Positions 5,301-31,392 of a stretch of 64,000 bases of DNA are shown here, piece after piece (positions within the stretch are counted from its first letter, which is position 1; each line of letters starts with the position of its first letter). Made by a program: the position numbers and the translations under genes. Source of the DNA: Myxococcota bacterium (GTDB lineage: Bacteria > Myxococcota_A > Polyangia > Polyangiales > Sandaracinaceae); contig JAYZQJ010000191.1 of assembly GCA_036149055.1 (NCBI GenBank), positions 1 to 64,000 of the forward strand. The letters run 5' to 3'. The notes under the pieces are model-generated. The model was not told the origin of the DNA. It saw only the letters and a program-made list of their open reading frames with translations, and did no database searches.

Positions 5301-8196
5301 CGACGTCACCGCCGACGCCTGGTACCTCGACAACGGGCGCATGCCGCCCGGGCTGATGATCGAGAGCGGCCAGGCGGACCTCTTCCTCATCAGCTGGCTC
5401 GGCGCCGACCTGCTCAACCGGGGCGAGCGCGCCTACCGCCTGCTCGGGTGCAAGCTCACCTGGCACCGCTCGCCGCCGAAGGTCGGAGAGACGCTCTCCT
5501 ACGACATCCACATCGACGGCCACGCCAAGCAAGGCGACGTGCGCCTCTTCTTCTTTCACTACGACTGCCACGTCGGCGGCGAGCCCGCGCTCACCGTGCG
5601 GAGCGGGCAGGCCGGCTTCTTCACCGAGGCCGAGCTCGCCGAGTCGGCCGGCGTGATCTGGTCGCCCGAGGAGCAGGAGATCGAGCCGGACGCCCGCCTC
5701 GATCCGCCGGCCGTCGAGTGCGCCCGCGATTCCTTCGACGACGCGGCGCTCGAGGCCCTGAGCCGCGGCGACGTCGTCGGCTGCTTCGGCGCCGGGTTCG
5801 AGGCCACCCGCTACCACGTCCGCACCCCGAGCATCGCCGCCGGCTACAAGCGGTTCCTCGGGCGGGTCGACGCGTGGGCGCCGCGCGGCGGGCCCTGGGG
5901 CCGCGGCTACCTGAAGGCGACCACCCGCATCGCGCCCGACGACTGGTTCTTCGAGGGGCACTTCCACGAGGACCCGTGCATGCCCGGCACCCTCATGCTC
6001 GAGGGCTGCCTCCAGGCGATGGCCTTCCACCTGATCGGGCTCGGCTACTCGCTCGACCGGGACGGCTGGCGCTTCGAGCCCATCCCTGACGAGACCTACC
6101 AGATGATCTGCCGCGGTCAGGTCACGCCGACCTCGAAGGAGCTCGTCTACGAGGTCTTCGTCGAGGAGCTGCACGACGGCCCGGAGCCCAAGCTCTACGC
6201 CGACCTGCTCTGCACCGTCGACGGCCTCAAGGCCTTCCACGCGCGGCGCTTCGGGCTGCAGCTCGTGCCCGACTTCCCGGTCAGCAGCCTCACGCTCCCG
6301 AGCGACGACCGCCCCGCCGCGACCCTCGACGGAGTCGTGCTCGACCGCGCCGCGATGCTCTGCTCGGCGTGGGGCCCTCCGTCCGCCGCCTTCGGCCCGC
6401 GCTACGCCGCGTACGACGGCGTCCGGCGCCCGCCGCGGCTCCCCGGCCCGCCCTATCACTTCGTCAGCCGGGTCACCCGCTTCGAAGGCGAGGCGTGGAC
6501 CAAGAAGCCCGGCCCCTCGGTCGAGGTCGAGTACGACGTCCCGCCCGACGCCTGGTACTTCGAGGGCGGGCGCAGCATGCCGTACGCGGTGCTGCTCGAG
6601 GTCGCGCTCCAGCCCTGCGGTTGGCTGGCCACCGCGAGCGGCTGCGCGCTCGGGCGCGAGGTCGACGTCCGCTTCCGCAACCTGGACGGGGAGGGCGAGG
6701 CCCTCGCCGAGGTCCTCCCGAGCGCGGAGCGCCTGACGACCACGGCCACGCTGACCTCGGTGAGCGACACCGCCGCGATGTCGATCGTCTCCTTCGACGT
6801 CGTCACCCGCGCGGGCGACACCGAGGTGCTGCGCCTGAAGACGGTCTTCGGCTTCTTCCCGGAGGCCGCCTTCGAGGCGCAGGCCGGCTTGCCCATCGGC
6901 GACACGCATCGCCGCCTGTTCGAGGCCACCGGCGGCGCGCCCACCCACCCGCTGCCCGGCCGCGGCCGGCTGGAGCTGCTCTCCGAGGTGCCTTACCTCG
7001 ACGTCTCCGGCCTCGGCGAGGCGCGGGCCGAGCGCCCGGTCGATCCGGGCGACTGGTTCTTCCGCGCGCACTTCTTCCAGGACCCGGTCCAGCCCGGCTC
7101 GCTCGGCCTCGAGGCGATGCACCAGCTCCTGCGCCTGGTGGCGGCCGAGAAGGGCCTGACCGACGGCATGGTCGCGCCCGACTTCAGCCCGCTCGACGGC
7201 CCGCACCGCTGGAAGTACCGCGGCCAGGTCCGCCCCACCGCGGAGCGCGTCGCCGTCACCCTCGCGACGACGAAGATCGAAGGCCGCCGCATCGAGGCCG
7301 ACGCCTCCTTCTGGGTCGACGGCAAGCGCATCTACGAGGCGACGCTGGGCACGACCGCGATCGACGCCGCCTCGCGCGAGGGCGTGCGCGCCTTGTGGCG
7401 CCGCTTCCTCGGCGTGGGCGAGTGGCTCGGCGAGGACGTCTACCTCGGCCTCTTCGATCGCTTCGTCGGCGAGGTCCACGTCGCCGACGTCCGGGCCCTG
7501 CGCGGCCGGCCGGCGCTCTACGTGGCCAACCACCAGACCGCGATCGAGACCCTGATGTTCTCGCTCCTCGGTGGCGCGATCAGCGGCGTGCCGATGGTCA
7601 CCCTCGCCAAGGCCGAGCACCGCGAGAGCTGGTACGGCGAGCTGCTCGCCTGGCTCTTCGCGCACCCGGACGTGACCGAGCCGGAGCTCACCCGCTACTT
7701 CGACCGCGGCGACCCGGCGGCGCTCCCCGCGCTCCTCGAGAGCGTGCCCATCGATCGCTCGATCTTCCTGCACGGCGAGGGCACCCGCGCGACGTCGGCC
7801 GGCCAGCCCCTCGGCCCGATGAGCGGCGTGCCCCTCGACCTCGCGATCGCCCGCGGCCTGCCGGTCGTCCCCGTCCGCTTCACCGGCGGCCTCCCGCGCG
7901 AGGGCGAGCTCAAGCGCGACTTCCCGGTGGGCATGGCGCGCCAAGACGTCTTCCTCGGCGCGCCGATCGAGGCGGCGGCCCTCGCCGCGCTCCCCTACAA
8001 GGAGCGCGTGTCCCGCGTCTCCGCCGCCATCGCCGCGCTCGGCCCCCGAGAGGACGCCCCGAACGCCCCCCAGCCCGAGCTCCCCGACGCCGCTCCCCGC
8101 GCCGTCCTCGCGAGCCTCGTCGACCCGGCGTCGATCCCCGACGACCCCTGGGGCCGACGCCTCCGCGCGCTCCTCAAGGGCGCGGGCGACGGGTGA
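2398..8196 (+). CDS. pfa3: PUFA synthase Pfa3 (KS, CLF, FabA-like DH domains, C-terminal AGPAT-like acyltransferase)
   Basis: KS triad DAACASS / ECHATGT / NLGHL; second KS-like domain lacks the catalytic Cys (TVSADALSG); FabA motifs FEGHFHEDPCMPG and FRAHFFQDPVQPG; acyltransferase motifs ANHQTAIE and GEGTR. Confidence 0.9.
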   Translation: MSFDPIAIVGRGCVLPGASAPAALWDLVAAGRDALGSVPEGRWRVNPARILTSDPRQSADRAWSDRGGYVRDFPAEDRDPVFAWPLAAGRQAFAEAGLEPGRRGGVVLGNLSFPSVSHARYAENLWLGRPQDVDPRERFHSSQPAVELARSLQLAGAPSFCLDAACASSLYAIRLACEALHDGAADVMLAGAVNCSDDLFIHVGFCALDALSKTGRSRPFHPEADGLVPGEGAAVVALMRLEDARAEGRPVLGVIRGVGLANDGRARGFLAPSEEGQVRAMRAAYAQAGLSPADIAWIECHATGTPVGDAAEIRSTSQVFAGAGEVPIGSLKANLGHLITAAGAAGLLKVLGAFEHGLRPPTPHLDRVTDALADAPLRVVREPEPWTGPRRAAISAFGFGGNDAHLIVEAEAPPTRRATERRPTERAPIAVVGVGARVGTLESAEALRDALATGRGSRRADRVRLPLEGLKSPPADLEAALAQQTMILAAALDAVPADLDRERTGVLVGMQCDSEIARYGARWREGEARFAPVLKSAGVLGTMPNIPANRLNAQLDVRGPSYTVSADALSGIRALEIAARALRAGELETAIVGAVELSVEPVHASAAAAVGVEDPPGDAAVVLVLERLDVAREKGRPILSVIDDEPRERVGARLGRQLGHAHAARGLLELTALALEGRAATLHLESLGGERARVSLRPDPESDDPPLVAPPSRRHLELPAHPPSLLEPPSTLPRAPSLPAADPRWVDVPQADTLTTRLEPPAPAAAPVAPPAAQVSGDHPLLAQLQAHQAQLAATHAEFLATQQRLHEEFLASRARAFQALLGGAVVMPPSAAPPRSAPTPPPAAPPPTAPPPPTATVSAPPTPSATPPTPPTPPTPPTPAPPSREPSRGLAPATPPPAPEGPTFDKAALEIHAGGRISEIFGERFAPQDGYRVQCRMPKAPLLMADRVTGLVGEPASQGKGTVWTETDVTADAWYLDNGRMPPGLMIESGQADLFLISWLGADLLNRGERAYRLLGCKLTWHRSPPKVGETLSYDIHIDGHAKQGDVRLFFFHYDCHVGGEPALTVRSGQAGFFTEAELAESAGVIWSPEEQEIEPDARLDPPAVECARDSFDDAALEALSRGDVVGCFGAGFEATRYHVRTPSIAAGYKRFLGRVDAWAPRGGPWGRGYLKATTRIAPDDWFFEGHFHEDPCMPGTLMLEGCLQAMAFHLIGLGYSLDRDGWRFEPIPDETYQMICRGQVTPTSKELVYEVFVEELHDGPEPKLYADLLCTVDGLKAFHARRFGLQLVPDFPVSSLTLPSDDRPAATLDGVVLDRAAMLCSAWGPPSAAFGPRYAAYDGVRRPPRLPGPPYHFVSRVTRFEGEAWTKKPGPSVEVEYDVPPDAWYFEGGRSMPYAVLLEVALQPCGWLATASGCALGREVDVRFRNLDGEGEALAEVLPSAERLTTTATLTSVSDTAAMSIVSFDVVTRAGDTEVLRLKTVFGFFPEAAFEAQAGLPIGDTHRRLFEATGGAPTHPLPGRGRLELLSEVPYLDVSGLGEARAERPVDPGDWFFRAHFFQDPVQPGSLGLEAMHQLLRLVAAEKGLTDGMVAPDFSPLDGPHRWKYRGQVRPTAERVAVTLATTKIEGRRIEADASFWVDGKRIYEATLGTTAIDAASREGVRALWRRFLGVGEWLGEDVYLGLFDRFVGEVHVADVRALRGRPALYVANHQTAIETLMFSLLGGAISGVPMVTLAKAEHRESWYGELLAWLFAHPDVTEPELTRYFDRGDPAALPALLESVPIDRSIFLHGEGTRATSAGQPLGPMSGVPLDLAIARGLPVVPVRFTGGLPREGELKRDFPVGMARQDVFLGAPIEAAALAALPYKERVSRVSAAIAALGPREDAPNAPQPELPDAAPRAVLASLVDPASIPDDPWGRRLRALLKGAGDG
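4880..5100 (+). repeat. Low-complexity Pro/Thr-rich linker coding region inside pfa3
   Basis: Imperfect ccgccgact/ccgccgacg repeats encoding TPPTPPTPPTPPTP. Confidence 0.8.
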
Positions 8197-15421: not shown

Positions 15422-17935
<2,514 letters not shown>

Positions 17936-17938
17936 GCC

Positions 17939-19060
17939 ATGGCCGAGACGTACGACGCCGAGGTGGCGATCATCGGCGCCGGCCCGGCCGGCACCGCCGC
18001 GGCCGCGCACCTCGCGAGCCTCGGGATCGACGACGTGGTCCTCGTCGACCGCCACGACTTCCCGCGCGACAAGACCTGCGGCAGCGGCATCTCCCCCAAG
18101 GGGATCAAGGTGCTCAAGGAGCTCGGCATCTGGGAGGAGGTCGAGCCCCACGCCTACTGGATCCGCGGCATCCGCATCGTCACGCCGGGCGGCCGCGACA
18201 GCTGGCAGTCGGCCGGCGACGTCGCCGAGGCCGTGGTCTGCCACCGCCGCACCCTCGATCACATCCTCTGGAAGAAGGCCGTCTCGGGCGGCGTGCGCTT
18301 CCTGCCCAACTTCGACGCCGCCGAGGCGATCGAGGAGGGCGGGCGCATGGTCGGCTTCAAGGCCCGCGACGGCCGCGAGGTCCGCGCCCGCTACACCCTG
18401 ATCGCCGGCGGCAGCCACTGCCGCGTCGGCCTGCCGGAGCTCCGGCCGCGCCGCACCATCCAGGCGATCATGGGCTGGTGGGACGACGCGGACTTCAAGC
18501 CGCACCACGTCGAGATGATCTTCGACCGGATGATCGAGCCCTACTACGGCTGGCTCTTCCCGGAGTCGGAGACGCGGGTGAACATCGGCATCACCTACGA
18601 GGATCCGCCCGGCGAGAAGAAGCACGCGCGGAAGCTCTTCCAGCAGTTCCTCGACAAGTACTACGGCGAGCGCCTCGCCAACGCGACGCAGGTCGGCGGC
18701 TGGAAGGGCCACCCGGTGGTCTGGAGCTACAAGATCGACAGCCTCACCGCGCCCGGCCGCGTCGCGATCGGGGAGTCCGGGCTGATGACCCACCCGGCGA
18801 CCGCCGAGGGCATCTACCAGGGCATGCGCTCCGGCATGCTCGGCGCCGAGGCCGTTCACTCGATCCTCCGCCGCGGCGTGGCCGAGCAGGAGGCGGGCGC
18901 GATCTACGAGCGCGAGTGCAAGAAGGCGTTCCAGCTCTCCTTCTGGGGCGGCGGCGTCTTCCGCAAGATGGTGCGCACCGACGCGCTCGACTGGGCGGTC
19001 GCGATCGGCGAGCAGCCGATGGTGCAGTCGGTCACCGCGAAGCTGATGGCGGCCATGTGA
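17939..19060 (+). CDS. Geranylgeranyl-reductase-family FAD oxidoreductase (candidate sterol double-bond reductase)
   Basis: IIGAGPAG, FPRDKTCGSGI, YGWLFP, NIGI, HPATAEGIYQGM. Confidence 0.85.
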   Translation: MAETYDAEVAIIGAGPAGTAAAAHLASLGIDDVVLVDRHDFPRDKTCGSGISPKGIKVLKELGIWEEVEPHAYWIRGIRIVTPGGRDSWQSAGDVAEAVVCHRRTLDHILWKKAVSGGVRFLPNFDAAEAIEEGGRMVGFKARDGREVRARYTLIAGGSHCRVGLPELRPRRTIQAIMGWWDDADFKPHHVEMIFDRMIEPYYGWLFPESETRVNIGITYEDPPGEKKHARKLFQQFLDKYYGERLANATQVGGWKGHPVVWSYKIDSLTAPGRVAIGESGLMTHPATAEGIYQGMRSGMLGAEAVHSILRRGVAEQEAGAIYERECKKAFQLSFWGGGVFRKMVRTDALDWAVAIGEQPMVQSVTAKLMAAM

Positions 19061-22000
19061 TGACGCCGCGGTACGACGTCGGGATCGTCGGCGCGTCGGT
19101 CGCCGGGTGCACCACCGCGCTGGCGTGCGCGAAGGCGGGGGCGCGCGTGCTCCTGCTCGAGGCCGACCCGAACGAGGCGGCCGCGCAGCACGTCGGAGCG
19201 TGGCTCCACCCGGACGCGATGGACGCGCTCGAGGGCCTCGGCGTCGACCTCGTGCCCCCCGTGGGCTACCCGACCGGCAAGGGCTACGTGCTCTTCCCGG
19301 AGGACGGCACCGAGGCCGTGGTCCTGCCGTACTCGGTGGGCCGCTTCGGCTTCTCGCTCCCGCAGGGCCTCCTGGTCGAGACGCTGCGGCAGCACTGCGA
19401 CGCCGACGAGGCGGTGACCCTCCGCTCGCCGGTCCGCGCGAGCCGCGTCGACGCGGGTACGCTCACCTGGCAGGAGCGCGGCCGCCCGCGCAGCGCCCGG
19501 GTCGAGCACGTCGTCTTCGCCGCCGGCGCGGACGTGCAGCCGATCAAGCGCGGCGCCGGCTACGTCTTCGGCGCGATCGAGCGGCCGCCGACGCACCGCA
19601 TCGCCAGCCTCGATCTGGTGGGCGCGACGCTGCCCTTCGAGGGCTTCCGACACGTCTTCGTCGGCGGCTGCGGCGTCGCGATCGCGCACCGCGTCGGCCC
19701 GGCCACCGTGCGCCTGGCGCTCGACGTGCCGCTCGGCTTCCGCGTGCCCCGCGAGGGCGGCGTGCAGCTGCTCGAGGCCTACGCGCCGTCGCTGCCGGAG
19801 GAGCTCGCCCTGCCCTTCGCCGAGGCGCTGCGCCGCGGGGCGCCGTCCTGGTCGCACGGCCGCATCCAGCCGCGCGGCAACATGATCCGCGGGGGCATCG
19901 CGCGGGTCGGCGACGCCGCCGGCAGCCTGCACCCGCTCACCGCGGCCGGCCCGAGCCTCGCGATCGCCGACGGCGTCGCCTTCGCCGAGTCCCGCTCGCC
20001 GGCCTCGTTCGCGCGCAAGCGCCGCCGCGACACCCGCCTCCCCGAGGCGATCGCGATCGGGCTCGCCGAGGTGCTGACCGACGAGGCGCCGGAGAGCGTC
20101 GCCATCCGCCGCGCGATGTACAACATGTGGCGCGACGATCCGGGCGAGCGGCTCCGCACGATGAGCTACATCGCCGGCGAGAACGAGGGGCTGCTGCGCT
20201 TCGGCGGCTCGTGTCTCCGGGTCATGCTCTCGAGCGCGGCCCGGGTGGCGAAGAGCGGCGCCCGCGGCGAGCTGCGCCACGCGCACCGGACCGGCTCGGC
20301 GCTGCTCGAGCGCATCGGCTGGATGGTCGGCGGCGCGCTCGGCTGGAGCGATCTCCTGCCCGACGCCTTCGCGGAGAAGCTCGAGGCGCGCGGCACCACG
20401 CGCTACCTCGGCGCGCTGCACCACACCGGCGAGGCCGAGGTCGTCGGGCTGCCCGCCCGGAGCGGCGGCGCGTCGTCGATCCAGACCGCGCTCGCGCGCG
20501 GCGCCCAGGCGCTGGTGAACGAGCAGGCCGAGGACGGCTCCTTCGAGGGGGAGGTCGTCTGGTGCCCGATGCTCGCCGCGCAGTACGTGCTCGCCTCGCA
20601 CGTGATGGACCGGCCGATCGATCCCGAGCGTCGGCGGCTGCTCCTGCGTCACTTCGAGGACACGTTGCTGCCCGGCGGCGCGTGGGGCCTGCACGAGAAG
20701 AGCGAGCCCTACCTCTTCGTCACCACGCTCGTGTACGTCGCGGCCCGGCTCCTCGGGGTCGACAAGGACGACGCGCTCATCCGCGAGGCGAAGGCGTTCA
20801 TCCGTCAGGAGGGCGGCGCGGTCGGCATCCCGAGCTGGGGCAAGCTCTGGCTCGCGCTCGTCGATCTCTACGCCTGGGAGGGCGTCAACCCGGTGGTGCC
20901 CGAGCTCTGGGCGACGCCGCGCTGGCTGCCGATGCACCCGAGCCGCTACTACTGCCACACCCGGCTCATCTACATGGGCATGGCCGCGCTCTACGGCGGG
21001 CGCGTGCGGCGCGAAGCGAACGCGACCATCCGCTGCGTGCGCGACGAGATCTTCCTCCAGCCGTACGGCGAGATCGACTTCGACGCCGCGCGCGAGACCC
21101 TCCGCGAGGGGGACGTGCACGACGCGCCGGGGCCGCTCCTGAAGCTGAGCTACCGGCTCCTCACCCGCTTCGAGCAGGCCAAGTCCGACGGCCTCCGGCA
21201 GAGGCTCCTCGGCGAGCTGCGCGACAAGATCCGCTACGAGCTCCGCTCGACGCACTACACCTGCATCTCGCCGGTCAGCGGCATGCTCGGCCTCCTCGCG
21301 CTCCACGCGAACGACCCGTCGGATCCCGACCTCGTGAAGGGGCTCGAGGGCTTCGAGGGCTGGATCTGGGAGGACGAGCAGGAGGGCGCGCGCATCGCCG
21401 GCGCCCGGAGCGCGACCTGGGACACCGCGTTCGCCGCCCAGGCGCTCGCGGCGGCCGCGGGTCACGTGGACGTCAGCGCGCCCCTCGAGCGCGCCGACGC
21501 CTTCCTCGCCAGCCAGCAGATCCGGCGCGGCACCGGCCTCGAGGGGCAGCACGACCGGCTCGACCCGACCGGCGGCTACTGCTTCGCCGGCGTCTGGCAC
21601 GGCTGGCCGGTCAGCGACTGCACCGCCGAGGCGATGCTCGCGCGGCTCCACAACCCGGCCGCGAAGCCGAGCGCCCGCGCGATGGAGCAGGCGGCCGAGT
21701 TCGTGCTGCGCTGCCAGAACGCCGACGGCGGCTTCGGGAGCTACGAGGCGCGGCGGCACGCGCGGCTCTCGATCGACTGGCTCAACCCGAGCGAGATGTT
21801 CGGCGCGTGCATGACCGAGCGCTCCTACGTCGAGTGCACCGCGTCGTGCGTGCAGGGCCTCGCCGCCTTCCGCGAGCGCTACCCGGACCGGCTCCGCGGG
21901 CGCGTCGACGCGGCGATCGAGGCCGGCGTCGCCCGCCTCCGCGCCGAGCAGCGCGCCGACGGCTCCTTCGAGGGCATGTGGGGCGTCAACTTCATCTACG

Positions 22001-22455
22001 GGACGCTCTTCGGGGTCCGCGGGCTGCTGGCCGGCGGCGTGCCCTGCACCGACCCGCAGATCCGCCGCGCCTGCGCGTGGCTGCTCGAGCGCCAGCGCCC
22101 CGACGGCGGCTGGGGCGAGCACTTCGCGAGCGTGCTCGAGGGCCGCTACGTGGAGCACGAGGAGGCGCAGGTCGTGCAGACCGCGTGGGCGCTGACCTGC
22201 CTGCTCGAGGCCGAGGAGCCGGACTTCGCGGCGCTCGAGCGCGCGGCCCGGCTGCTCGCCCGGACCCAGCGGTCCGACGGAACGTGGCCGAAGCAGGATC
22301 CCGAGGGGATCTTCTTCCACACCGCGCTCCTCGAGTACCGCCTCTACCGCGCATACTTCCCGCCCTGGGCGCTCGGGCTCTTCGCGAGCCGCGCCGAGGC
22401 CAGGGCCGCCTGGACCGAAGGGGGCCGCGCCGAGCGCCGCCCCGCCATCGTCTGA
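19060..22455 (+). CDS. osc: Fusion of a degenerate squalene-epoxidase-like domain and an oxidosqualene cyclase
   Basis: N-terminal domain IVGASVAG, GAWLHP, VGDAAGSLHPLT; cyclase motifs HGWPVSDCTAE, YCHTR, WGKLWLA; QW repeats QAEDGSF, QNADGGF, QRADGSF, QRPDGGW, QRSDGTW; TGATG coupling to the upstream gene. Confidence 0.88.
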   Translation: MTPRYDVGIVGASVAGCTTALACAKAGARVLLLEADPNEAAAQHVGAWLHPDAMDALEGLGVDLVPPVGYPTGKGYVLFPEDGTEAVVLPYSVGRFGFSLPQGLLVETLRQHCDADEAVTLRSPVRASRVDAGTLTWQERGRPRSARVEHVVFAAGADVQPIKRGAGYVFGAIERPPTHRIASLDLVGATLPFEGFRHVFVGGCGVAIAHRVGPATVRLALDVPLGFRVPREGGVQLLEAYAPSLPEELALPFAEALRRGAPSWSHGRIQPRGNMIRGGIARVGDAAGSLHPLTAAGPSLAIADGVAFAESRSPASFARKRRRDTRLPEAIAIGLAEVLTDEAPESVAIRRAMYNMWRDDPGERLRTMSYIAGENEGLLRFGGSCLRVMLSSAARVAKSGARGELRHAHRTGSALLERIGWMVGGALGWSDLLPDAFAEKLEARGTTRYLGALHHTGEAEVVGLPARSGGASSIQTALARGAQALVNEQAEDGSFEGEVVWCPMLAAQYVLASHVMDRPIDPERRRLLLRHFEDTLLPGGAWGLHEKSEPYLFVTTLVYVAARLLGVDKDDALIREAKAFIRQEGGAVGIPSWGKLWLALVDLYAWEGVNPVVPELWATPRWLPMHPSRYYCHTRLIYMGMAALYGGRVRREANATIRCVRDEIFLQPYGEIDFDAARETLREGDVHDAPGPLLKLSYRLLTRFEQAKSDGLRQRLLGELRDKIRYELRSTHYTCISPVSGMLGLLALHANDPSDPDLVKGLEGFEGWIWEDEQEGARIAGARSATWDTAFAAQALAAAAGHVDVSAPLERADAFLASQQIRRGTGLEGQHDRLDPTGGYCFAGVWHGWPVSDCTAEAMLARLHNPAAKPSARAMEQAAEFVLRCQNADGGFGSYEARRHARLSIDWLNPSEMFGACMTERSYVECTASCVQGLAAFRERYPDRLRGRVDAAIEAGVARLRAEQRADGSFEGMWGVNFIYGTLFGVRGLLAGGVPCTDPQIRRACAWLLERQRPDGGWGEHFASVLEGRYVEHEEAQVVQTAWALTCLLEAEEPDFAALERAARLLARTQRSDGTWPKQDPEGIFFHTALLEYRLYRAYFPPWALGLFASRAEARAAWTEGGRAERRPAIV

Positions 22456-22499
22456 GAATTCTGTCGTCGAGCCGTACCGATGCAGTCCAAGGAGCAGTC

Positions 22500-25400
22500 A
22501 TGAACCGCAGCAGCTACGACGTCGTCGTCGTCGGAGCCGGGCCCGCCGGGTGCGGCGCCGCGCTCGCTCACGCCCGCCGGGGCGCCTCCGTGCTCGTGGT
22601 CGAGGCCGACCCTCGCGCCGCGAAGCGCTTCGCCGGCGAGTGGCTCCACCCCACCGGCGTCGCCGTGCTCGACGCGCTCCGGGTCGGCCGCCTCGAGCAG
22701 GCGAGGGCCCGCGCGGGCTACGGCTTCGTCATCTTCCCCGACGACGGCAGCGAGCCGATCGAGATGGCCTACACCGAGGGCGTCGCGCTGAGCGCCGAGC
22801 ACCACGCGATCGTCGAGGCGATGCGCGACGCGCTCCGGGCCGAGGACCGGGTGGAGCTGCTCATCGGAGGCCGCGCGGTGCGGGTCGCCGACGGCGTCAT
22901 CCGGATCGAGGACAAGAAGAGCGGCCGCGCGACCGACGTGCGCGCCGGACGGATCATCGGCGCCGACGGCCGCAAGTCGACGGTGCGCGAGAGCCTCGGC
23001 GTCCCGACCCAGAAGAGCGCGCCGCTGAGCTACATGGCCTCGGTCGAGCTGCGCGACGTGGAGCTGCCCTTCGAGGGCTTCGGTCACCTCGTCCTCGGCG
23101 GACCCGGCCCGGCGCTCTTCTACCGCATCGGCGACGGGCTCATCCGCGGCTGCCTCGACGTGCCGATCGCGCTCGGCCCGAACGCGCGCTCGCTCGAGGC
23201 GCTCTGGGACGGCTTCGGCCCGGTGATGCCGGAGTCGATGCGCCCCGCGCTCCGCGCCGCCCTCGAGCGCGGCCCGAGCGGCTGGGCGATCAACCAGTTC
23301 CGCCCCCGCGCGCTCTTCGGCGCCGGCGACGTGCGGCTGGTCGGCGACGCGGTCGGCCACGTGCACCCGATGACGGCCACCGGCATGACGCTCGGCCTGC
23401 TCGACGCCAAGGCCCTCGCCGAGAGCGACAGCCTGGAGTCCTACGCCAAGGCGCGCCGGAGCTACGTGCCGGAGCTGCTGTCGAACGCGCTCTACCACTG
23501 CTTCCGCCGTGACGACCCGAGCGCGACCGCGATCCGCCGCGCGATGTTCGAGACGCTCCGCAAGGAGCCCCGCGAGCGCCGCCGCACGATGGACATCCTC
23601 GCCGGCACCGATCAGAGCCGGCGCAGCTTCGGCTCGGCCTTCCTCCGCATCGCCGCCCGCGCGGTCGGCGGCTCCCTCGAGAGCGAGCGCCCGCTGTCGC
23701 GCCTCATGAGCTTCGGCGAGTGGATGCAGTGGCCCGCCGCGCTGGTGGTGCCGAGCGGCCTCGACGCGAGCGTGCGCGCCCAGAGCAGCACGACGCACCC
23801 GATCCCGCAGCTGGCCAAGCTCACGCCGACCGCGGCCCCCGTGGCCCCGCCCGAGACGCCCGGCGGGAAGGCGCCGGCGCTCGACGTGCCGCTCACCCCG
23901 GCCCTCGAGCGCGGCACCGCGGCGCTCCTCCGGGAGCTCGAGCGGCTCGCGATGCAGTTCGGCGAGGTGCCCGACGCGACCCTGGCCGGCCCGGCGCTCT
24001 CCTGCATCCGCGCGATCACCGCGACCCGGATGCGCCTCGGCATGGCCGCGCGCATGACGCTCGGGCGTCGCCGCCTCGCCACCGAGGGCTTCCCCCGCCT
24101 CCTCGACGCCGAGCCGCACGCGCGGCACCTGGCGGAGCTCTGCCTGGTGCTCCTCGACGGCGCGCCGTGGGACGAGCAGCCGATCGCGAGCCTCGACGAG
24201 GGCGTGCGCGCGCTGCTCGACTGCCAGACCGAGAGCGGCGGCTTCGCGCGCTCCCGGGGCGTCGCCTCCTCGCCCGGCGCGGCCGGAGAGCTCGAGCTGA
24301 CCGCGCTCGCGTGTCGGGCGCTCGAGGTGGTCGCGCGCAAGGGCAAGAGCGACGCCGACCTCGGCCGCGCGCTCGAGCGGGCCGCCGACTGGGTCGTCTC
24401 GCTGCAGGGCGACGACGGCGACTTCGGCGGCGACGTCTCGCGCACCGCCTGGGCGATCGAGGCCCTCATCGCGGCCGGCGTGCACCCCGGCGATCCGGCG
24501 GCGCGTCGCGCGGTCCGCTGGCTCTCGGTGGCGCTCGACCCGAGCGGCGATCCGGTCGAGGCGGCGCGCGCCGTCCGGGCGCTCCTCGCCGCCGGCGTCT
24601 CCTCCAACGAGGCGATCGTCTCCGCGGCCCGCGGCCTCGCGTCGCTCGAGGAGACCGACTGGCGCGTGGCGCGCGAGGTGGTCGAGGCGCTCGCCGCCTG
24701 TGAGGTCCGCCGGGCCGAGCGGCCGCAGAAGCGCGCCCGTCGCCGCAAGCGCGGCAGCGACAAGTCGCCGATCGGGCCCGAGCTGAAGGCGGACTGGAAG
24801 TTCTGCCGCCAGGCGCTCGGCGAGGTCTCGCGCACCTTCGCGCGGCCGATCGAGATGCTCCCGCCGAAGCTCGAGGTCGCCGTCTCGCTCGGCTACCTCC
24901 TCTGCCGCATCGCCGACACCGTCGAGGACCACGTCGCGGTGCCCTTCGAGGTGAAGGACGATCTGTTCGCGAAGCTCTGCGCGGTGCTCGAGCACGGCGC
25001 GGATCCGGCGCCCTTCGCCGAGGCGTTCACCCACATCGAGGGCGACGACGCGGAGCTGTCCCTGGCCCGCGAGCTGCCGCGCGTGATGCGGGTCTACGAC
25101 GCGCAGGACGAGGCGACGAAGAAGGCGTGCACGCGCTGGGTCACCGAGATGGCCCGCGGCATGAGCCTCTACACGCACCGCAAGCCCGAGGCCGACGGCG
25201 TCGCGGCGCTGCACACGATCCCGGACCTCGAGCGCTACTGCTACTACGTGGCGGGCACGGTCGGGCACCTCCTGACCGACCTCTTCGTCGACGCGATCGG
25301 CGAGGACCCCGAGGGCGCGCTCGCGATCGCGATGCGGGACCACGCGGAGGGCTTCGCGACCGGCCTGCAGCTCACGAACATCCTGAAGGACGTGACCGAC

Positions 25401-25820
25401 GACCTCGCGCGCGGGGTCTCGTTCATCCCGCGCACCGAGTGCGCGCGGCAGGGCTTCTCGGTCGCCGATCTCGCCGACCCGAAGGTGCGCGACCGGGCCC
25501 ACGCCGCCGTCTCGCCGGTCTTCGACATCGCCAAGGAGCGGCTCGACGCGGCGCTCGAGTACTCGCTGCTCATCCCGTCCGAGCACCGCCAGATCCGGCT
25601 CTTCTGCCTGCTGCCGCTCTGGATGGCCGGCCGCACCCTGGCGCTCGGCCGCGGCAACGACGCGATGTTCGAGCCCGACCTGCCGGTCAAGATCACCCGG
25701 AGCGAGGTCGAGTCGCTGATCGCCGAGTGCATGACGCTCGCCGAGGACGACGACGCGCTGCGCGCTCGCTACGCGCGCCTGTTCGAGCCGGCCCAGGGCC
25801 AGCGGCGGGAGATGCGATGA
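22500..25820 (+). CDS. Fusion of squalene epoxidase, a cyclase-like QW-repeat remnant and squalene synthase
   Basis: Epoxidase motifs VGAGPAG, RFAGEWLHPTG, ADGRKS, GDAVGHVHPMTATGMT; QW repeats CQTESGGF, LQGDDGDF; squalene synthase motifs VSRTF, YLLCRIADTVED, YCYYVAGTVG, LQLTNILKDVTDD; AAGGAG RBS. Confidence 0.88.
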   Translation: MNRSSYDVVVVGAGPAGCGAALAHARRGASVLVVEADPRAAKRFAGEWLHPTGVAVLDALRVGRLEQARARAGYGFVIFPDDGSEPIEMAYTEGVALSAEHHAIVEAMRDALRAEDRVELLIGGRAVRVADGVIRIEDKKSGRATDVRAGRIIGADGRKSTVRESLGVPTQKSAPLSYMASVELRDVELPFEGFGHLVLGGPGPALFYRIGDGLIRGCLDVPIALGPNARSLEALWDGFGPVMPESMRPALRAALERGPSGWAINQFRPRALFGAGDVRLVGDAVGHVHPMTATGMTLGLLDAKALAESDSLESYAKARRSYVPELLSNALYHCFRRDDPSATAIRRAMFETLRKEPRERRRTMDILAGTDQSRRSFGSAFLRIAARAVGGSLESERPLSRLMSFGEWMQWPAALVVPSGLDASVRAQSSTTHPIPQLAKLTPTAAPVAPPETPGGKAPALDVPLTPALERGTAALLRELERLAMQFGEVPDATLAGPALSCIRAITATRMRLGMAARMTLGRRRLATEGFPRLLDAEPHARHLAELCLVLLDGAPWDEQPIASLDEGVRALLDCQTESGGFARSRGVASSPGAAGELELTALACRALEVVARKGKSDADLGRALERAADWVVSLQGDDGDFGGDVSRTAWAIEALIAAGVHPGDPAARRAVRWLSVALDPSGDPVEAARAVRALLAAGVSSNEAIVSAARGLASLEETDWRVAREVVEALAACEVRRAERPQKRARRRKRGSDKSPIGPELKADWKFCRQALGEVSRTFARPIEMLPPKLEVAVSLGYLLCRIADTVEDHVAVPFEVKDDLFAKLCAVLEHGADPAPFAEAFTHIEGDDAELSLARELPRVMRVYDAQDEATKKACTRWVTEMARGMSLYTHRKPEADGVAALHTIPDLERYCYYVAGTVGHLLTDLFVDAIGEDPEGALAIAMRDHAEGFATGLQLTNILKDVTDDLARGVSFIPRTECARQGFSVADLADPKVRDRAHAAVSPVFDIAKERLDAALEYSLLIPSEHRQIRLFCLLPLWMAGRTLALGRGNDAMFEPDLPVKITRSEVESLIAECMTLAEDDDALRARYARLFEPAQGQRREMR

Positions 25821-26524
25821 TGGGCTTCGAGCTTCCGATGATGGACAACCTCTGGTTCCACGTCGCGATCGGCATCACGCTCTTCGTCGACGCGGTCCTC
25901 CTGGTGTTCCTCAGCTGGGCCTACCGCTCGCCGCGCTTCGCGAAGTACCACATTCGCAAGCCGATGGAGATGCGGGTCAGCAAGTCGAATTACCGCTGGA
26001 CGGTGGGCGTCATCGGCCTGCTGTCGAGCAGCTCGACGGTGGTGCTCATCTACGGGCTCGCCCCGCTGACCATCAGCGAGACGACGACCACGCCCTGGTG
26101 GCTCATCGCGCTGCAGTTCTTCGGCGTGCTCTTCGTCTACGACTTCGCCTACTACTTCATGCATCGGACGATGCATCACCGGAAGCTCATGCCGCTGGTG
26201 CACGAGATCCATCACCGCGTCCGCGTGCCGAGCGCGCTCGAGAGCCTCTACCTCTCGCCGGTCGAGATGCTCGCGGGCCTGCTGCTGCTGATGGCGGTGA
26301 CGTGGGCGCTCGGCCCGGTGCACTGGATCGCCTTCGTGGCGGTCTTCTTCCTCTACTCGACGCTGCACATCGTCATCCACTCGGGGATGACCTTCCCGCA
26401 CCCGGTCTTCCGCGTGATGAACCACCTCACGATGAAGCACCACAAGCACCACCTGAACAAGCACGGTCACAACTTCGCGTCCGTGACCCCGCTGCCGGAC
26501 ATCGTGTTCGGCACCTCTGTCTGA
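25817..26524 (+). CDS. Sterol desaturase / fatty acid hydroxylase family (ERG3/ERG25-like) membrane di-iron enzyme
   Basis: His boxes HRTMHH, HEIHH, HSG, HHKHH; hydrophobic helices; ATGA overlap. Confidence 0.85.
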   Translation: MMGFELPMMDNLWFHVAIGITLFVDAVLLVFLSWAYRSPRFAKYHIRKPMEMRVSKSNYRWTVGVIGLLSSSSTVVLIYGLAPLTISETTTTPWWLIALQFFGVLFVYDFAYYFMHRTMHHRKLMPLVHEIHHRVRVPSALESLYLSPVEMLAGLLLLMAVTWALGPVHWIAFVAVFFLYSTLHIVIHSGMTFPHPVFRVMNHLTMKHHKHHLNKHGHNFASVTPLPDIVFGTSV

Positions 26525-26531
26525 GGCAGTC

Positions 26532-28202
26532 ATGTTCCTTCGCAGACCCGAAGTCCCGGAAGGGCTCAAGCCCGCGCCGGAGCTGTCCGGCGGGCTCCCG
26601 CTCGTCGGTCACACCGTCGAGTTCGTGCGCGACACGATCGGCATGCTCGAGCGCGCCCACCACGAGCTCGGCGAGGTCGCCGCGGTGCGCGTCGCCGGCC
26701 GCCGCATGGTCGCCCTCTTCGGCCCCGAGGCCCACGAGGCGGTCTTCCGCGCGAAGGACCAGGTCCTCGACCCGCGCGAGGCCTACAAGATCATGACCCC
26801 CGTCTTCGGCGAGGGCATGGTCTACGACGCCTCGCCCGAGAAGATGAACGAGCAGTTCAAGATGCTGCTCCCGGCGCTCAAGGACCGCCGCATGCGCACC
26901 TACGGGGAGACCATCCTCGACGAGGTCGAGCGCAGCGTCGCGGACTGGGGGGACGAGGGCGAGATCGACATCGTCGACTACTGCCGCGTCCTGACGAACT
27001 TCACCTCCTCGCGCTGCCTCATCGGCGAGGAGTTCCGCGAGCGCATGACCGACGAGTTCGCGCGCATCTACCACGACCTCGAGCGCGGCGTGACGCCCCT
27101 CGCCTACATCGACGCGAACCTCCCGATCCCGAGCTTCAAGAAGCGGGACGCGGCCCGGGTCCGGCTCGTGAAGCTGATCGGCGCGATCATCGACGAGCGC
27201 GCCCGGACCGGCCGGACCGGTGAGGACTTCCTCCAGACCCTGATGGAGGCCCGCTACCAGGACGGCGCGGCGCTCACCCACGACGAGATCACCGGGATGC
27301 TGCTCGCGGCGATGTTCGCCGGGCACCACACCAGCTCGGTCACCACCGCGTGGGCCCTCATCGAGCTCTGCAAGAACCCCGCGTACATGCGGCGCGTGGT
27401 CGCGGAGCTCGACGAGACCTACGGCGAGAGCGGCCAGACCGACTACCAGTCGCTCCGCAACATCCCGGTCACCGAGCACGCGGTGAAGGAGACCCTGCGG
27501 CTCTACCCGCCGCTCTTCCTGCTCATCCGGGTGGTGCAGAAGGACTGGACCTTCAAGGGGCACCACCTGCCGAAGGGCACCTGGATCCTCGTGTCACCGA
27601 CCGTCTCGCAGCGCGACCGCGAGGTCTTCACCCACCCTTACACCTTCGACCCCGACCGCTTCGCCGAGCCGCGCAACGAGGGCAAGAAGGACTGGGCGTT
27701 CATCGCCTTCGGCGGCGGCCGCCACAAGTGCCTGGGCAACGCGTTCGCGCTCCTCCAGGTCAAGGCGATCCTCGGCACGCTCCTGCGGCGCTACGAGTTC
27801 GAGCTGGTCGACCCGAAGGTGAAGCCGGACTTCCACGGCCTCGTCATCGGCCCCTCCGAGCCCTGCCGGCTGCGCTACCGCCGCCGCGAGGAGAAGGTCG
27901 CCGCCCGCCCGGCCCCGAAGGTCGAGGAGGCGCCGAAGCCGGCGCCGAAGAAGAAGGAGGAGCGAGTCCAGCTCCGGATCGCGCTCGACCTCGATCTCTG
28001 CCAGGGCCACGCGGTCTGCGTGAACGAGGCGCCGGGCGTCTTCTACGTCTCGGACGAGACCGGCAAGGTCGCCCTCCACACCGATCGCCCCGACCCGAGC
28101 CAGAACGACGCCGTGCGCGCCGCGGCCGACTACTGCCCGCAGCGCGTCATCCAGGTCCACGAAGAAGACGAAGCGCCCCTCACCTGCCCCGTGGCGCACT
28201 GA
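26532..28202 (+). CDS. cyp51: Sterol 14alpha-demethylase CYP51 fused to a C-terminal ferredoxin
   Basis: CYP51 signatures AYKIMTPVFGEGMVYD and FAGHHTS; ETLR; heme motif FGGGRHKCLG; ferredoxin motif CQGHAVC...CP. Confidence 0.92.
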   Translation: MFLRRPEVPEGLKPAPELSGGLPLVGHTVEFVRDTIGMLERAHHELGEVAAVRVAGRRMVALFGPEAHEAVFRAKDQVLDPREAYKIMTPVFGEGMVYDASPEKMNEQFKMLLPALKDRRMRTYGETILDEVERSVADWGDEGEIDIVDYCRVLTNFTSSRCLIGEEFRERMTDEFARIYHDLERGVTPLAYIDANLPIPSFKKRDAARVRLVKLIGAIIDERARTGRTGEDFLQTLMEARYQDGAALTHDEITGMLLAAMFAGHHTSSVTTAWALIELCKNPAYMRRVVAELDETYGESGQTDYQSLRNIPVTEHAVKETLRLYPPLFLLIRVVQKDWTFKGHHLPKGTWILVSPTVSQRDREVFTHPYTFDPDRFAEPRNEGKKDWAFIAFGGGRHKCLGNAFALLQVKAILGTLLRRYEFELVDPKVKPDFHGLVIGPSEPCRLRYRRREEKVAARPAPKVEEAPKPAPKKKEERVQLRIALDLDLCQGHAVCVNEAPGVFYVSDETGKVALHTDRPDPSQNDAVRAAADYCPQRVIQVHEEDEAPLTCPVAH

Positions 28203-28216
28203 AGAGAGAGCAGCAC

Positions 28217-29791
28217 ATGCAGAACGTCGCCATCGAGCTCGAGAGCACCCCCGAGGTCATCGACTGCCGCGAGCCGGCCACCCACGCGCCCCTCGGCAAG
28301 GTGCCGGTGGACGGGCCGGACGTGGTCCGCGCCAAGGTCGCGCGGGCGCGCGTCGCGCAGAAGAGCTGGGGGGAGAGCACCTTCTCGGAGCGCCGCCGCC
28401 TCCTCAAGACCATCCTCGCCCACGTGCTCGACCACGCGGACGAGCTCTGCGAGGTCGTGGTCCGCGACGCCGGCAAGACCCGCGAGAACGCGGTGATGGG
28501 CGAGATCTGGCCGGTCTGCGAGAAGCTCCGCTGGACGATCGCGAACGGCGAGAAGCACCTCCGCCCCGAGCGCATGTCGAGCGGCCTGTTCCTGCACAAG
28601 AAGGCCACCGTCCTCTACCAGCCGCTCGGCGTCATCGGCGTGATCTGCCCGTGGAACTACCCGCTGCAGAACGTGCTCGGGCCGACCATCCCGGCGCTCT
28701 TCGCGGGCAACGCGGTGGTGGTGAAGGTCTCCGAGCAGGTCGCGTGGTCGTCGGCGCGCATGCAGCGCATCTTCGACGAGGCGTTCGACGCGCTCGGCTA
28801 CCCGAAGGACACCGTGCAGATCGTCAACGGCTACGGCGAGACCGGCGCCGCGCTGGTCCGCTCGGGCGTCGACAAGGTGATCTTCACCGGCTCGGTCCCG
28901 AACGGCCGGAGGATCATCGAGGGCAGCGTCGAGAACATCACGCCCGTCATCCTCGAGCTCGGCGGCAAGGACGCGTTCATCGTCTGCGAGGACGCCCACA
29001 TGGAGCAGGCGGTGCACGCCGCGCTCACCGGCGTGTTCATCGCGGCCGGCCAGAACTGCATGGCCGCCGAGCGCGTGCTCGTGCACGCGAAGGTCTACGA
29101 CGACTTCGTCGGCCGCCTCGTGAGCGAGGTGAAGAAGCTCCGCGTGGGCGACGCGCCGCAGGGCGCGGTCGACGTGGGCGCGCTCGTCTCGCCGCAGCAG
29201 GTCGAGATCGTCGAGCGGCTCGTGAACGACGCGGTCGAGAGCGGCGCGCGGGTCCTCGTCGGCGGCAAGCGCGGCGATCGCCCGGGCCAGTTCTTCGAGC
29301 CCACCGTGCTCGTCGACGTCACCCCGGACATGGCGATCATGAACGAGGAGGTCTTCGGCCCGGTGATGTGCGTGCACCGCTACGAGACCGACGACGAGGC
29401 GATCGAGATCGCCAACGGCACCCGCTTCGGCCTCGGCTCCACCGTGATGAGCCGCTCGGGCACGCGCGCCCGCCGCCTCGCCGAGCGCCTCCGCGTCGGC
29501 TCCTGCACCATCAACGACTTCGGCTTCACCTACATGGCGCAGGACCTGCCCTTCGGCGGCGTGGACGCCAGCGGCTTCGGTCGGCTCAACGGCCGCGAGG
29601 GCCTGCGAGGCTGCACCAACCAGAAGGCCATCCTCGAGGATCGGCTGCCGCTGCACATGCCGGCCAAGCTCTACCCGGTGAAGCCCGAGGTCTACCCGCT
29701 CGTGCGCGGGGTGCTCCGGACGCTCTACCAGCCGACCCTGACCGGCCGCGCCAAGGCGGTGGTCGAGCTCGCCAAGAACCTCCGCCGATGA
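28217..29791 (+). CDS. Aldehyde dehydrogenase
   Basis: PWNYP, FTGS, LELGGKD, GQNCMA, EEVFGP. Confidence 0.93.
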   Translation: MQNVAIELESTPEVIDCREPATHAPLGKVPVDGPDVVRAKVARARVAQKSWGESTFSERRRLLKTILAHVLDHADELCEVVVRDAGKTRENAVMGEIWPVCEKLRWTIANGEKHLRPERMSSGLFLHKKATVLYQPLGVIGVICPWNYPLQNVLGPTIPALFAGNAVVVKVSEQVAWSSARMQRIFDEAFDALGYPKDTVQIVNGYGETGAALVRSGVDKVIFTGSVPNGRRIIEGSVENITPVILELGGKDAFIVCEDAHMEQAVHAALTGVFIAAGQNCMAAERVLVHAKVYDDFVGRLVSEVKKLRVGDAPQGAVDVGALVSPQQVEIVERLVNDAVESGARVLVGGKRGDRPGQFFEPTVLVDVTPDMAIMNEEVFGPVMCVHRYETDDEAIEIANGTRFGLGSTVMSRSGTRARRLAERLRVGSCTINDFGFTYMAQDLPFGGVDASGFGRLNGREGLRGCTNQKAILEDRLPLHMPAKLYPVKPEVYPLVRGVLRTLYQPTLTGRAKAVVELAKNLRR

Positions 29792-31392
29792 TCGAGACGT
29801 TCGACTACGTCGTGGTCGGCGGGGGCTCCGCCGGCTGCATCGTCGCGGCCGAGCTGAGCGAGGATCCGCGCGTCCGGGTGCTGCTCCTCGAGCGCGGGGA
29901 CGACGCGCAGGAGCACCCCGAGACGCTCCGCGCCGACGGCTACAAGGACGCGTTCGCGAACGACGCGCTCGTGCTCGAGCGCTTCAGCGTGCACGCCGAT
30001 CGCTGGGGTGACCGCCGGCTCTTCATGGGCTCGGGGCACGGCCTCGGCGGCAGCGGCAACATTAACGGCATGGTCTACACCCGCGGCGCAAAGGTCGACT
30101 ACGACGCCTTCCCCGAGGGCTGGCGCTGGGCCGACGTGGTGCCCGACTTCGAGCGCATCGAGGCGCAGCTCCGCCCGCGCCCCCGCGCGGCGACGGCCTT
30201 CACCGAGGTCTGCCTCGACGCGGCCGAGGAGGCGGGCTTCGCGCGCTCGAAGGACCTGAACGACGGCGACCTCGGCGGGGTGCTCGGCTACGAGCACATG
30301 AACTACGAGGGTGACGACCGGCGCAGCAGCTACGTCGCCTTCCTCCTGCCCGCGCTCGACCGCGGCAACCTCGTGGTCCGCACCAACGCGAAGGTCGAGC
30401 GCCTCACCGTCGACGAGCGGGGCGTCACCGGCGTGCGCTACGCCTGGGACGGCGGCGACCACGAGGCGCGGGCGGTCCGCGAGGTGGCGATGTGCGCCGG
30501 CGCCCTCGAGACGCCGCGCCTGCTGATGCTCTCGGGCATCGGGCCGAGCGGCGCGCTCCGGCACGTGGGCCTGCCCGCGGTGCACGAGGTGCCCGGGGTG
30601 GGCGAGAACCTCCACGACCACCCGAACGTGAGCCTCTTCTTCCGCGGTCAGCGCGAGGTCGACTGCAACTACCCGCAGCTCTACGGCTTCCACCGCGCGA
30701 ACGAGGCGACCGACCTGCCCGAGGGCGCGAGCGACACCTGCTACGTCTTCTACCCGGCCCGCAGCTCGCTCAAGGAAGCGATGATGCGCATGCTGCCGAC
30801 GCTGGTGCTGCCGGAGCCGCTCTACGATCTGCCCGCGATGCCCAAGCTGGTGCGCGGCGGCGTGCGCCTCGCCTTCGGGCCGCGCGCGATGCGAGAGGCG
30901 GTCAAGCGCGTCTACGGCATCGTCGTCATCCTCGGCAAGCCCAAGAGCCGCGGCCGGCTCCGGCTCACCGCCTCGAGCCCGAGCGCCCCGGCGGCGATCG
31001 ACCCGGGCTACTTCGCCGACCCCGAGGACATGGAGACGATGATCCGCGGCGTCGAGCGCGCCCGCCGCATCGCCCGCGCGCAGCCGCTCCGGTCGTGGGG
31101 CAACACGGAGCTCTTCCCCGGCCTGCTCGGGCGCTCGCGCGACGCGATCGAGGGCTGGATCCGGCAGAACGTGATGACCACGTATCACTACGCCGGCACC
31201 TGCGCGATGGGCGACAACGGCGCGAGCGTGTGCGATCCGCGCCTCCGGGTGCGGGGCGTGCGCGGCCTCCGGATCGCCGACGCCTCGGCCATCCCGTTCA
31301 CGCCGGTCTCGGCCCTCAACGCCCCCTCCATGCTGGTCGGCCACCGCGCCGCCCGCTTCATGCGCGAAGAGTCCCCAAGCGTGGACGCCTGA
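29788..31392 (+). CDS. GMC (choline dehydrogenase-like) oxidoreductase
   Basis: VVGGGSAG, GLGGSGNINGMVY, VGENLHDH, YHYAGTC, RIADAS; ATGA overlap with the ALDH gene. Confidence 0.92.
   Translation: MIETFDYVVVGGGSAGCIVAAELSEDPRVRVLLLERGDDAQEHPETLRADGYKDAFANDALVLERFSVHADRWGDRRLFMGSGHGLGGSGNINGMVYTRGAKVDYDAFPEGWRWADVVPDFERIEAQLRPRPRAATAFTEVCLDAAEEAGFARSKDLNDGDLGGVLGYEHMNYEGDDRRSSYVAFLLPALDRGNLVVRTNAKVERLTVDERGVTGVRYAWDGGDHEARAVREVAMCAGALETPRLLMLSGIGPSGALRHVGLPAVHEVPGVGENLHDHPNVSLFFRGQREVDCNYPQLYGFHRANEATDLPEGASDTCYVFYPARSSLKEAMMRMLPTLVLPEPLYDLPAMPKLVRGGVRLAFGPRAMREAVKRVYGIVVILGKPKSRGRLRLTASSPSAPAAIDPGYFADPEDMETMIRGVERARRIARAQPLRSWGNTELFPGLLGRSRDAIEGWIRQNVMTTYHYAGTCAMGDNGASVCDPRLRVRGVRGLRIADASAIPFTPVSALNAPSMLVGHRAARFMREESPSVDA

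Follow-up and report, generated by a model that had tools for sequence, protein, structure and literature searches.

Sterol C-4 Demethylation and the Locus under Study

Demethylation of sterols at C-4 has arisen several times, in the sterol methyl oxidase (SMO), SdmA and Leishmania CYP5122A1 systems, and each of these is credited to one oxygenase performing three steps. A relay split over several enzymes would be a further route, and a candidate for it is encoded in the stretch of DNA analyzed here, the 64,000 nucleotides of contig JAYZQJ010000191.1 from a Myxococcota bacterium (hereafter, the window). The end of a 16 kb sterol gene run on the plus strand (25817..31392) encodes a membrane oxidase with histidine boxes (the His-box protein), an aldehyde dehydrogenase (ALDH) and a GMC flavoprotein, which are referred to below as the trio. 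The host is a marine myxobacterium (genome G000, 96% complete) whose nearest named relatives are Sandaracinaceae metagenome-assembled genomes (MAGs); a second genome of the same genus (G018, 100% complete) was used for comparison.

A 'succinate-semialdehyde dehydrogenase' of Plesiocystis was put forward as a candidate equivalent of ERG27, with the remark that the yeast copy cannot rescue ERG27 (Desmond and Gribaldo, 2009; PMC2817430). The same ALDH was later adopted as an 'ERG27-analog' (seed P38694), the gene being mostly flanked by those for ERG25 and ERG26 (Hoshino and Gaucher, 2021; PMC8237579). For one genome, Table S3 of the latter paper lists OSC HBQ15219, SQMO HBQ15218, ERG25 HBQ15216, CYP51 HBQ15215 and ERG27 HBQ15214. 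As the His-box protein of the window shares a 90% cluster with HBQ15216.1 and its ALDH belongs to the 'ERG27-analog' family, two of the three genes already bear names in print, and have done so since 2021.

A preliminary description of the window had proposed that this span encodes an alternative C-4 demethylation module, with a methyl group oxidized to alcohol, aldehyde and acid by successive enzymes and the path ending in decarboxylation or in a steroid acid. Its novelty is less than was then assumed. The trio is a real conserved module. Four of its features, namely the GMC partner, an exchange with SdmA, operons of the order SdmA-ALDH-GMC, and the assignment of the ALDH to the formyl-to-carboxyl step, were not found in full-text literature searches, which covered few subscription papers and excluded figures. 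Comparative genomics favors C-4 as the site of action, and the two conditions on genome evidence that would have refuted the proposal do not hold: the linkage of the genes is conserved, and the His-box protein lies outside the clade labeled as C-5 desaturases. The steroid-acid ending becomes less likely, as the genomes examined retain a decarboxylase-type short-chain dehydrogenase/reductase (SDR).

The Trio and SdmA within the Family

Within the window's family, 31 genomes were sampled, 28 of them with an oxidosqualene cyclase (OSC) gene; G029 was left out of the counts. A GMC ortholog is present in 16 genomes and an ALDH ortholog in the same 16, and the two genes are adjacent in 16/16, so that their linkage is conserved. 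The His-box ortholog also occurs in all 16, at the same locus in 14 of them. The trio lies inside the OSC operon in five genomes only and elsewhere forms a separate unit, ordered ALDH-GMC-His or His-ALDH-GMC.

Operon-type SdmA and the ALDH-GMC pair largely exclude each other in this family. The 28 OSC-positive genomes divide into 11 with SdmA only, 15 with ALDH and GMC only, one with both and one with neither (Fisher p 6e-6, a value that overstates the association because kin are not independent), and none of these genes is present in the three OSC-negative genomes. On the OSC tree, the SdmA state changes six times; in six independent pairs that differ in SdmA, GMC changes in the opposite direction in 5.4 on average and never in the same way.

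In 12 relatives in the family, SdmA scores 406-428 bits and its gene stands between those for an SdmB-like SDR and a geranylgeranyl reductase in 12/12. This slot is empty in the window, where the corresponding genes are 3 bp apart. A search with the SdmA model (NF052579) at E<=1e-25 returned no protein from G000 or G018, and, as the preliminary description had it, no Rieske gene is present in the operon. G000 encodes eight Rieske proteins; three of the eight were scanned on the SdmA model, two of which touch its Rieske domain only (63 and 28 bits). A weaker SdmA-like paralog (169-270 bits) is found away from the operon in nine family genomes and in neither G000 nor G018. It was considered as a candidate for the actual SdmA; at the four such loci fetched (L099-L102), queries with sterol genes gave no match nearby.

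CYP51 was considered as a partner of the pair and rejected: as CYP51 is present in 12/12 OSC-positive family genomes that lack GMC, and as the trio is often located away from CYP51, ALDH and GMC are not helpers of C-14 demethylation.

Properties of the Three Proteins

The His-box protein has the FA_hydroxylase fold with three histidine boxes. Eight box residues (H116, H120, H129, H132, H133, H208, H211 and H212), together with H188, are invariant in 20/20 orthologs. Its AlphaFold model is helical (pLDDT 89); a fold search gave a weak match only (Scs7p, E 0.3), a sequence search of the PDB gave none, and homolog and Atlas searches returned no named eukaryotic member. In a published tree (PMC8237579, as given in flattened PDF text), the protein that shares its 90% cluster falls into the ERG25 ingroup, whereas human SC5D and yeast ERG3 belong to the outgroup. 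G000 also encodes a paralog on contig C245 that is 25% identical to the His-box protein. The two form separate clades (FastTree), and the paralog groups with automatically labeled lathosterol oxidase-type sequences: lathosterol oxidase or Delta7-sterol 5-desaturase labels occur in 31/120 rows for relatives of the paralog vs 0/120 for the His-box family. The His-box protein is thus outside the clade labeled as C-5 desaturases, whose own member sits elsewhere in the genome. Despite the presence of the paralog gene (L098:3595-4620), a search of this genome found no Delta8-Delta7 isomerase.

In the ALDH, the catalytic C281, the general base E247 and the oxyanion residue N147 are invariant in 16/16 orthologs. 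These Cys, Glu and Asn residues have established roles in the oxidation of aldehydes by way of a thiohemiacetal. The protein belongs to PF00171 and is therefore not an SDR, as an ERG27-type 3-ketosterol reductase would be. Outside the myxobacteria, its best matches come from eukaryotes, among them Chondrus CDF35134 and a fungal protein annotated 'Meiotic Sister-Chromatid recombination aldehyde dehydrogenase' (of 150 matches, 10 were looked up). A quick tree groups it with fungal Msc7 and red algal ALDH22A1 in a single clade that excludes other ALDHs (SH-aLRT 100; 36 of 57 rows). The seed P38694 mentioned above is presumably Msc7 itself.

The GMC protein retains G11, G13 and G16 of the FAD motif as well as H467 and N511, all invariant in 20/20 orthologs. 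By sequence and by fold it is nearest to alcohol and choline oxidases. It scores 313 bits on the choline dehydrogenase model vs 19.6 bits on the cholesterol oxidase model NF058674 (cut-off 850), and the listed fold matches (ranks 1-50) include no cholesterol oxidase. No named subfamily can be given because its scores are below every NCBIfam cut-off. In one relative (G022), the GMC gene is split into two open reading frames by a frameshift or an assembly error (L065:6028-7586).

Distribution across the Class

A class-wide sample comprised 301 genomes of at least 85% completeness. Between four and nine candidates were scored per genome, so that misses are possible, and the counts are concentrated in few families and do not represent independent events. 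OSC was found in 119 genomes, GMC in 83, SdmA of at least 300 bits in 63 and the His-box family in 66. Of the 83 GMC-positive genomes, 78 have the His-box gene or SdmA, and, among OSC-positive genomes, GMC is present in 66/81 with either oxygenase vs 4/38 with neither. Gene position is more telling: a distance of at most 15 kb between the His-box gene and GMC is seen in 24/30 genomes without SdmA vs 0/26 with SdmA.

In family f16, the oxygenase coupled to the pair is SdmA. In 19 genomes of this family, SdmA is located 1.64-1.75 kb upstream of GMC on the same strand, and ALDH fills the gap in 3/3 loci fetched. Oxidation of the C-4 methyl group by SdmA has been demonstrated in experiments, so that this tandem arrangement ties the pair to C-4. 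The GMC-linked SdmA proteins of f16 score 315-347 bits, and nearly all unlinked SdmA proteins score 382 or more; because of these lower scores, the f16 operon SdmA may have lost later oxidation steps. The ALDH-GMC pair behaves as a portable back end for the C-4 oxygenase of a lineage, which would be the His-box protein in some families and a diverged SdmA in f16. In two f16 loci (L078:6340-11693 and L079:6186-11300), the SdmA-ALDH-GMC operon is accompanied by a divergent TetR gene.

The order His-ALDH-GMC-SDR is seen in five fetched loci. The last gene encodes an SdmB-like SDR in L087 (291 bits), L089 and L090, and a second SDR type in L062 and L065. Four further genes beside the trio or OSC (L088:1-894, L105:10813-11802, L106:7216-8205 and L107:5501-6505) may, to judge from a motif in L088, encode sterol methyltransferases.

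A Predicted C-4 Relay and Its Alternatives

The order of the genes, the families of their products, the integrity of the catalytic residues, and the distribution and linkage of the genes among genomes are observed directly, and from them we infer four steps. The His-box enzyme would hydroxylate the C-4 methyl group with O2, as in the first ERG25 step; the GMC protein would take the 4-hydroxymethyl to the 4-formyl group; the ALDH would oxidize this to the 4-carboxyl group with NAD(P)+; and the SDR would oxidize the 3-hydroxyl group, whereupon the beta-keto acid would lose CO2 and the ketone be reduced back. The His-box oxidase, GMC and ALDH may thus take the place of SdmA ahead of SdmB-type decarboxylation. 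On the present sequence evidence, this relay is given about even chances; that the set has some role at C-4, however the steps are shared, is probable. For an alcohol oxidase and an ALDH between a methyl oxygenase and a decarboxylating SDR, the series CH3 to CH2OH to CHO to COOH followed by loss of CO2 is the simplest chemistry.

The predicted decarboxylase and 3-keto reductase is the SDR domain fused to HMG-CoA reductase in the same gene run. Its top SDR model is SdmB (NF052578, 304 bits; the model cut-off of 600 is methanotroph-based), and the TGAAGHLG and YVHSK motifs are intact. This fused SDR is decayed, with loss of YxxxK, in L025, L037 and L038; as a second SDR type (61-68% identity) is present there, decarboxylation is favored over a steroid acid as the outcome. 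The second SDR type was also considered as a marker of the trio and proved not to discriminate, being present in 11/15 genomes with GMC only vs 7/11 with SdmA only.

Published findings also speak for the relay. SdmA of E. salina and Calothrix, acting alone, yields a 4-methylaldehyde (PMC10202945), so that an aldehyde does build up at this stage of C-4 oxidation. In C. glabrata, MSC7 tops the genes induced by hyperactive (G898D) Upc2A, beside ERG genes (PMC8509923, Table 2), and is also upregulated in a second study of azole and hypoxia responses (PMC5928633).

Several observations weigh against the predicted relay. SdmA together with SDRs demethylates lanosterol in E. coli in the absence of GMC and ALDH (PMC10202945), and the three oxidations are ascribed to SMO/ERG25 as a single enzyme (PMC6385002). 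SdmB acts on the 4-beta methyl group and ERG25 on the 4-alpha methyl group, so an ERG25-type oxidase and an SdmB-type SDR would need a stereochemical fit. A class-wide exclusion of SdmA and GMC is rejected, since both occur in 48 OSC-positive class genomes, and exclusion is limited to the window's family. Even there, the test becomes borderline once phylogeny is corrected for (median p 0.0625, range 0.031-0.125), five of the 15 genomes with GMC only carry the weaker SdmA-like paralog (169-244 bits), and the His-box ortholog occurs alone, without GMC, in five genomes. GMC is also found in 13/182 OSC-negative class genomes (11 of them in family f3), in some cases beside hsaC/hsaD-like ring-cleavage genes.

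Because published SdmA and ERG25 perform three oxidations alone, ALDH and GMC could be helpers. The His-box protein would then be a full three-step C-4 methyl oxidase, and the pair would only take up alcohol and aldehyde intermediates that this protein or SdmA lets escape; it would increase flux or spare oxygen but would not be essential. Retention of GMC in 27/40 class genomes with high-scoring SdmA, unlinked in 26, agrees with such a role, but the pair has repeatedly moved into the operon of the oxygenase, and family genomes with the His-box gene and ALDH and without operon-type SdmA have GMC in 15/15, only G011 having the His-box gene with neither. A dispensable role is rated as rather unlikely.

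Action of the pair at C-3 is improbable. The GMC protein would in that case oxidize the 3-beta-hydroxyl group as do cholesterol oxidases, which are GMC proteins, and the ALDH-family protein would be the 3-ketoreductase. However, the aldehyde-type Cys/Glu/Asn set retained in this ALDH is not known to reduce ketones, the GMC scores and fold matches described above point away from cholesterol oxidase, and the operon already has an SDR able to handle C-3. The proposal for the ALDH came from its phyletic pattern and synteny (Desmond and Gribaldo, 2009; Hoshino and Gaucher, 2021), and the failure of the yeast copy to rescue ERG27 loss argues against it (PMC2817430).

It is similarly improbable that the trio acts on the side chain, oxidizing one of its methyl groups (C-26/27) to give a steroid acid that would serve as a signal or lead into sterol breakdown, or that the His-box protein is a 25-hydroxylase. 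CH25H is of the same superfamily. In family f3, which often lacks OSC, genes for TetR, a PaaE-type reductase, the His-box protein and an SDR are accompanied by a divergent ALDH-GMC pair, with hsaC/hsaD-like genes nearby; the PaaE-type reductase has no match in G000. This layout is compatible with removal of C-4 methyl groups from scavenged sterols and also with a catabolic side-chain role. 25-Hydroxycholesterol is produced in E. salina, where the enzyme responsible has yet to be assigned (PMC10202945). Yet the 25-hydroxyl is tertiary, so that GMC and ALDH cannot oxidize it further, and a side-chain role leaves unexplained the pair directly behind SdmA in 19 genomes, the exchange with SdmA and the decarboxylase-type SDR that ends five operons. 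An island of this layout is present in 4-5 Mb deltaproteobacterial MAGs (L004:128-11725 and L005-L012), with OSC in only one of five genomes tested. This island presumably also includes a cycloeucalenol isomerase-like gene (no Pfam match).

A C-5 desaturase with ALDH and GMC as unrelated passengers, suggested by the label 'sterol desaturase family protein', the only one that sources give the family, and by the position of the His-box gene behind ERG2 in three close relatives, is largely refuted and highly improbable in view of the separate C245 paralog with its lathosterol oxidase labels, the outgroup position of SC5D and ERG3 in the published tree, the lack of a detected ERG2 or EBP in G000 to make the Delta7 substrate, and the conserved linkage of the trio.

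The Sterol Gene Run

The predicted relay genes belong to a run in which GC3 is 0.96-0.99 throughout (Table 1). Within the span, the preliminary description was right as to the His-box, ALDH and GMC genes, all of which are present as real open reading frames, and as to the ATGA overlap of the ALDH stop with the GMC start; it passed over the CYP51-ferredoxin gene, which is within the span and yet outside the proposed relay. The SDR that it placed in the same operon does belong to the same gene run, but is outside the span, 8 kb upstream, and is the C-terminal domain of a fusion with HMG-CoA reductase. The start of the His-box gene likewise overlaps the squalene synthase stop (ATGA).

Table 1. 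Genes of the sterol run in the window, with model matches and predicted roles.
Feature	Position	Strand	Matches and remarks
HMG-CoA reductase + SdmB-like SDR fusion	15422..17935	+	PF00368 + PF01370; SDR domain ~16817-17935
Geranylgeranyl reductase family protein, likely Bsr-type C-24 reductase	17939..19060	+	TIGR02032, 157 bits
Epoxidase-like domain + oxidosqualene cyclase fusion, likely lanosterol synthase	19060..22455	+	TIGR03463, 713 bits
Squalene epoxidase + degenerate barrel + squalene synthase fusion	22500..25820	+	PF08491, 68 bits; PF00494, 146 bits; weak PF13243 remnant
His-box membrane oxidase (FA_hydroxylase superfamily), 235 aa	25817..26524	+	PF04116, 75 bits; predicted first C-4 methyl hydroxylation
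CYP51-ferredoxin fusion (C-14 demethylase)	26532..28202	+	PF00067 + Fer4; top PDB match 6mcw 'Cytochrome P450 51', 537 bits
Aldehyde dehydrogenase (ALDH), Msc7/ALDH22A1 family, 524 aa	28217..29791	+	PF00171, 462 bits; predicted 4-formyl to 4-carboxyl
GMC flavoprotein, alcohol/choline oxidase type, 534 aa	29788..31392	+	PF00732/PF05199; predicted 4-hydroxymethyl to 4-formyl

The OSC has the DCTAE motif and a valine at the position of human V453, which is a marker of lanosterol production among tested bacteria (PMC4919349). The geranylgeranyl reductase family protein is 60-95% identical to the proteins in the same slot of family clusters; the function of Bsr is assigned in PMC12004948. ERG2 and the ERG24 that relatives carry in their clusters are absent from this operon. 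In G000, neither ERG2 nor EBP was found; for ERG2 this rests on tblastn with a relative's protein, because PF04622 matched no control genome. One gene of the ERG4/ERG24 family is located on another G000 contig. The products of the pathway are likely 4-desmethyl or 4-monomethyl, C-14-demethylated and C-24-saturated Delta8 sterols.

A promoter and terminator scan gave no signal beyond chance. Nine RNA runs contain the stretch, and in a seawater run (X1) one contig of 10,808 nt spans 19951-30758; with no DNA control, this is not proof of transcription or co-transcription.

The fusion of HMG-CoA reductase and SDR (15422-17935) is common to most family clusters. GAGGAG and ATG just ahead of the SDR domain (~16800-16817) suggest that the SDR may also be made separately. 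Two epoxidase-like domains are encoded at 19060-25820, the OSC-fused one scoring 24 bits on PF08491 and the squalene synthase-fused one 68 bits. The former diverges faster across the family and the latter precedes the degenerate cyclase-like barrel. The two domains and the barrel suggest duplication of a squalene epoxidase-OSC gene with decay of one half in each copy. At the beginning of the window (6-8196), two large open reading frames with acyl carrier- and ketosynthase-like starts resemble a synthase cluster for polyunsaturated fatty acids or polyketides.

Implications

It is possible, if less likely than not, that ALDH and GMC are an old portable back end of C-4 demethylation that pairs with a His-box oxidase or with SdmA, and that the ALDH half survives as Msc7/ALDH22A1 in the role of a 4-formylsterol dehydrogenase. 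If so, fungi, plants and protists would have in Msc7/ALDH22A1 a sterol pathway enzyme that has so far gone unnoticed, not the missing 3-ketoreductase of plants, and the functions of yeast Msc7 and plant ALDH22A1 would be open to a concrete and cheap test. The prediction of 2009 would be reassigned, the 'ERG27-analog' being an intact aldehyde dehydrogenase with an alcohol-oxidase-type GMC protein as its steady neighbor.

A split relay would also account for the absence of SdmA from roughly half of the family genomes that bear sterol genes. Oxygenase turnovers would drop from three to one per methyl group, with dehydrogenase chemistry finishing the oxidation. Should the GMC protein act as a dehydrogenase, both C-4 methyl groups would be removed with two O2 rather than six, a saving of relevance to sterol synthesis where oxygen is scarce and to the proposal that the eukaryotic pathway came from myxobacteria.

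Comparison with Known Systems

The closest described set is the myxobacterial ERG25-ERG26-ERG27-analog set, which has the same His-box family, the same ALDH family (CDF35134) and the same gene order (OSC, SQMO, ERG25, CYP51, ERG27). It differs in that the ALDH is there proposed to be a 3-ketoreductase; the term 'GMC' has no match in the supplement of that paper (PMC8237579). The passages of the nannosterol paper mention neither ALDH nor GMC.

Yeast Msc7 and plant ALDH22A1 form one well-supported clade with the window ALDH at 40-47% identity, the eukaryotic matches being longer (~570-670 aa) with an N-terminal extension. Literature searches turned up no sterol substrate for Msc7/ALDH22A1, and the passage mentioning tomato ALDH22A1 makes no sterol link.

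The SdmA/SdmB(/SdmC) system (PMC10202945; PMC12004948) is alike in operon type, as seen in the published Sandaracinus cluster (Bsr, OSC and SdmB-like SDR), and in the predicted end result. Here, however, SdmA was not found and its slot is empty; the locus instead encodes a membrane His-box oxidase together with two enzymes of the dehydrogenase type. The eukaryotic set of SMO/ERG25, ERG26/NSDHL and ERG27 resembles the locus in its leading His-box oxidase, its use of an SDR for decarboxylation and the predicted intermediates. Unlike that set, in which SMO is credited with the whole oxidation of the methyl group, the locus has a shorter His-box protein (235 aa), an SdmB-like SDR and two extra oxidizing enzymes.

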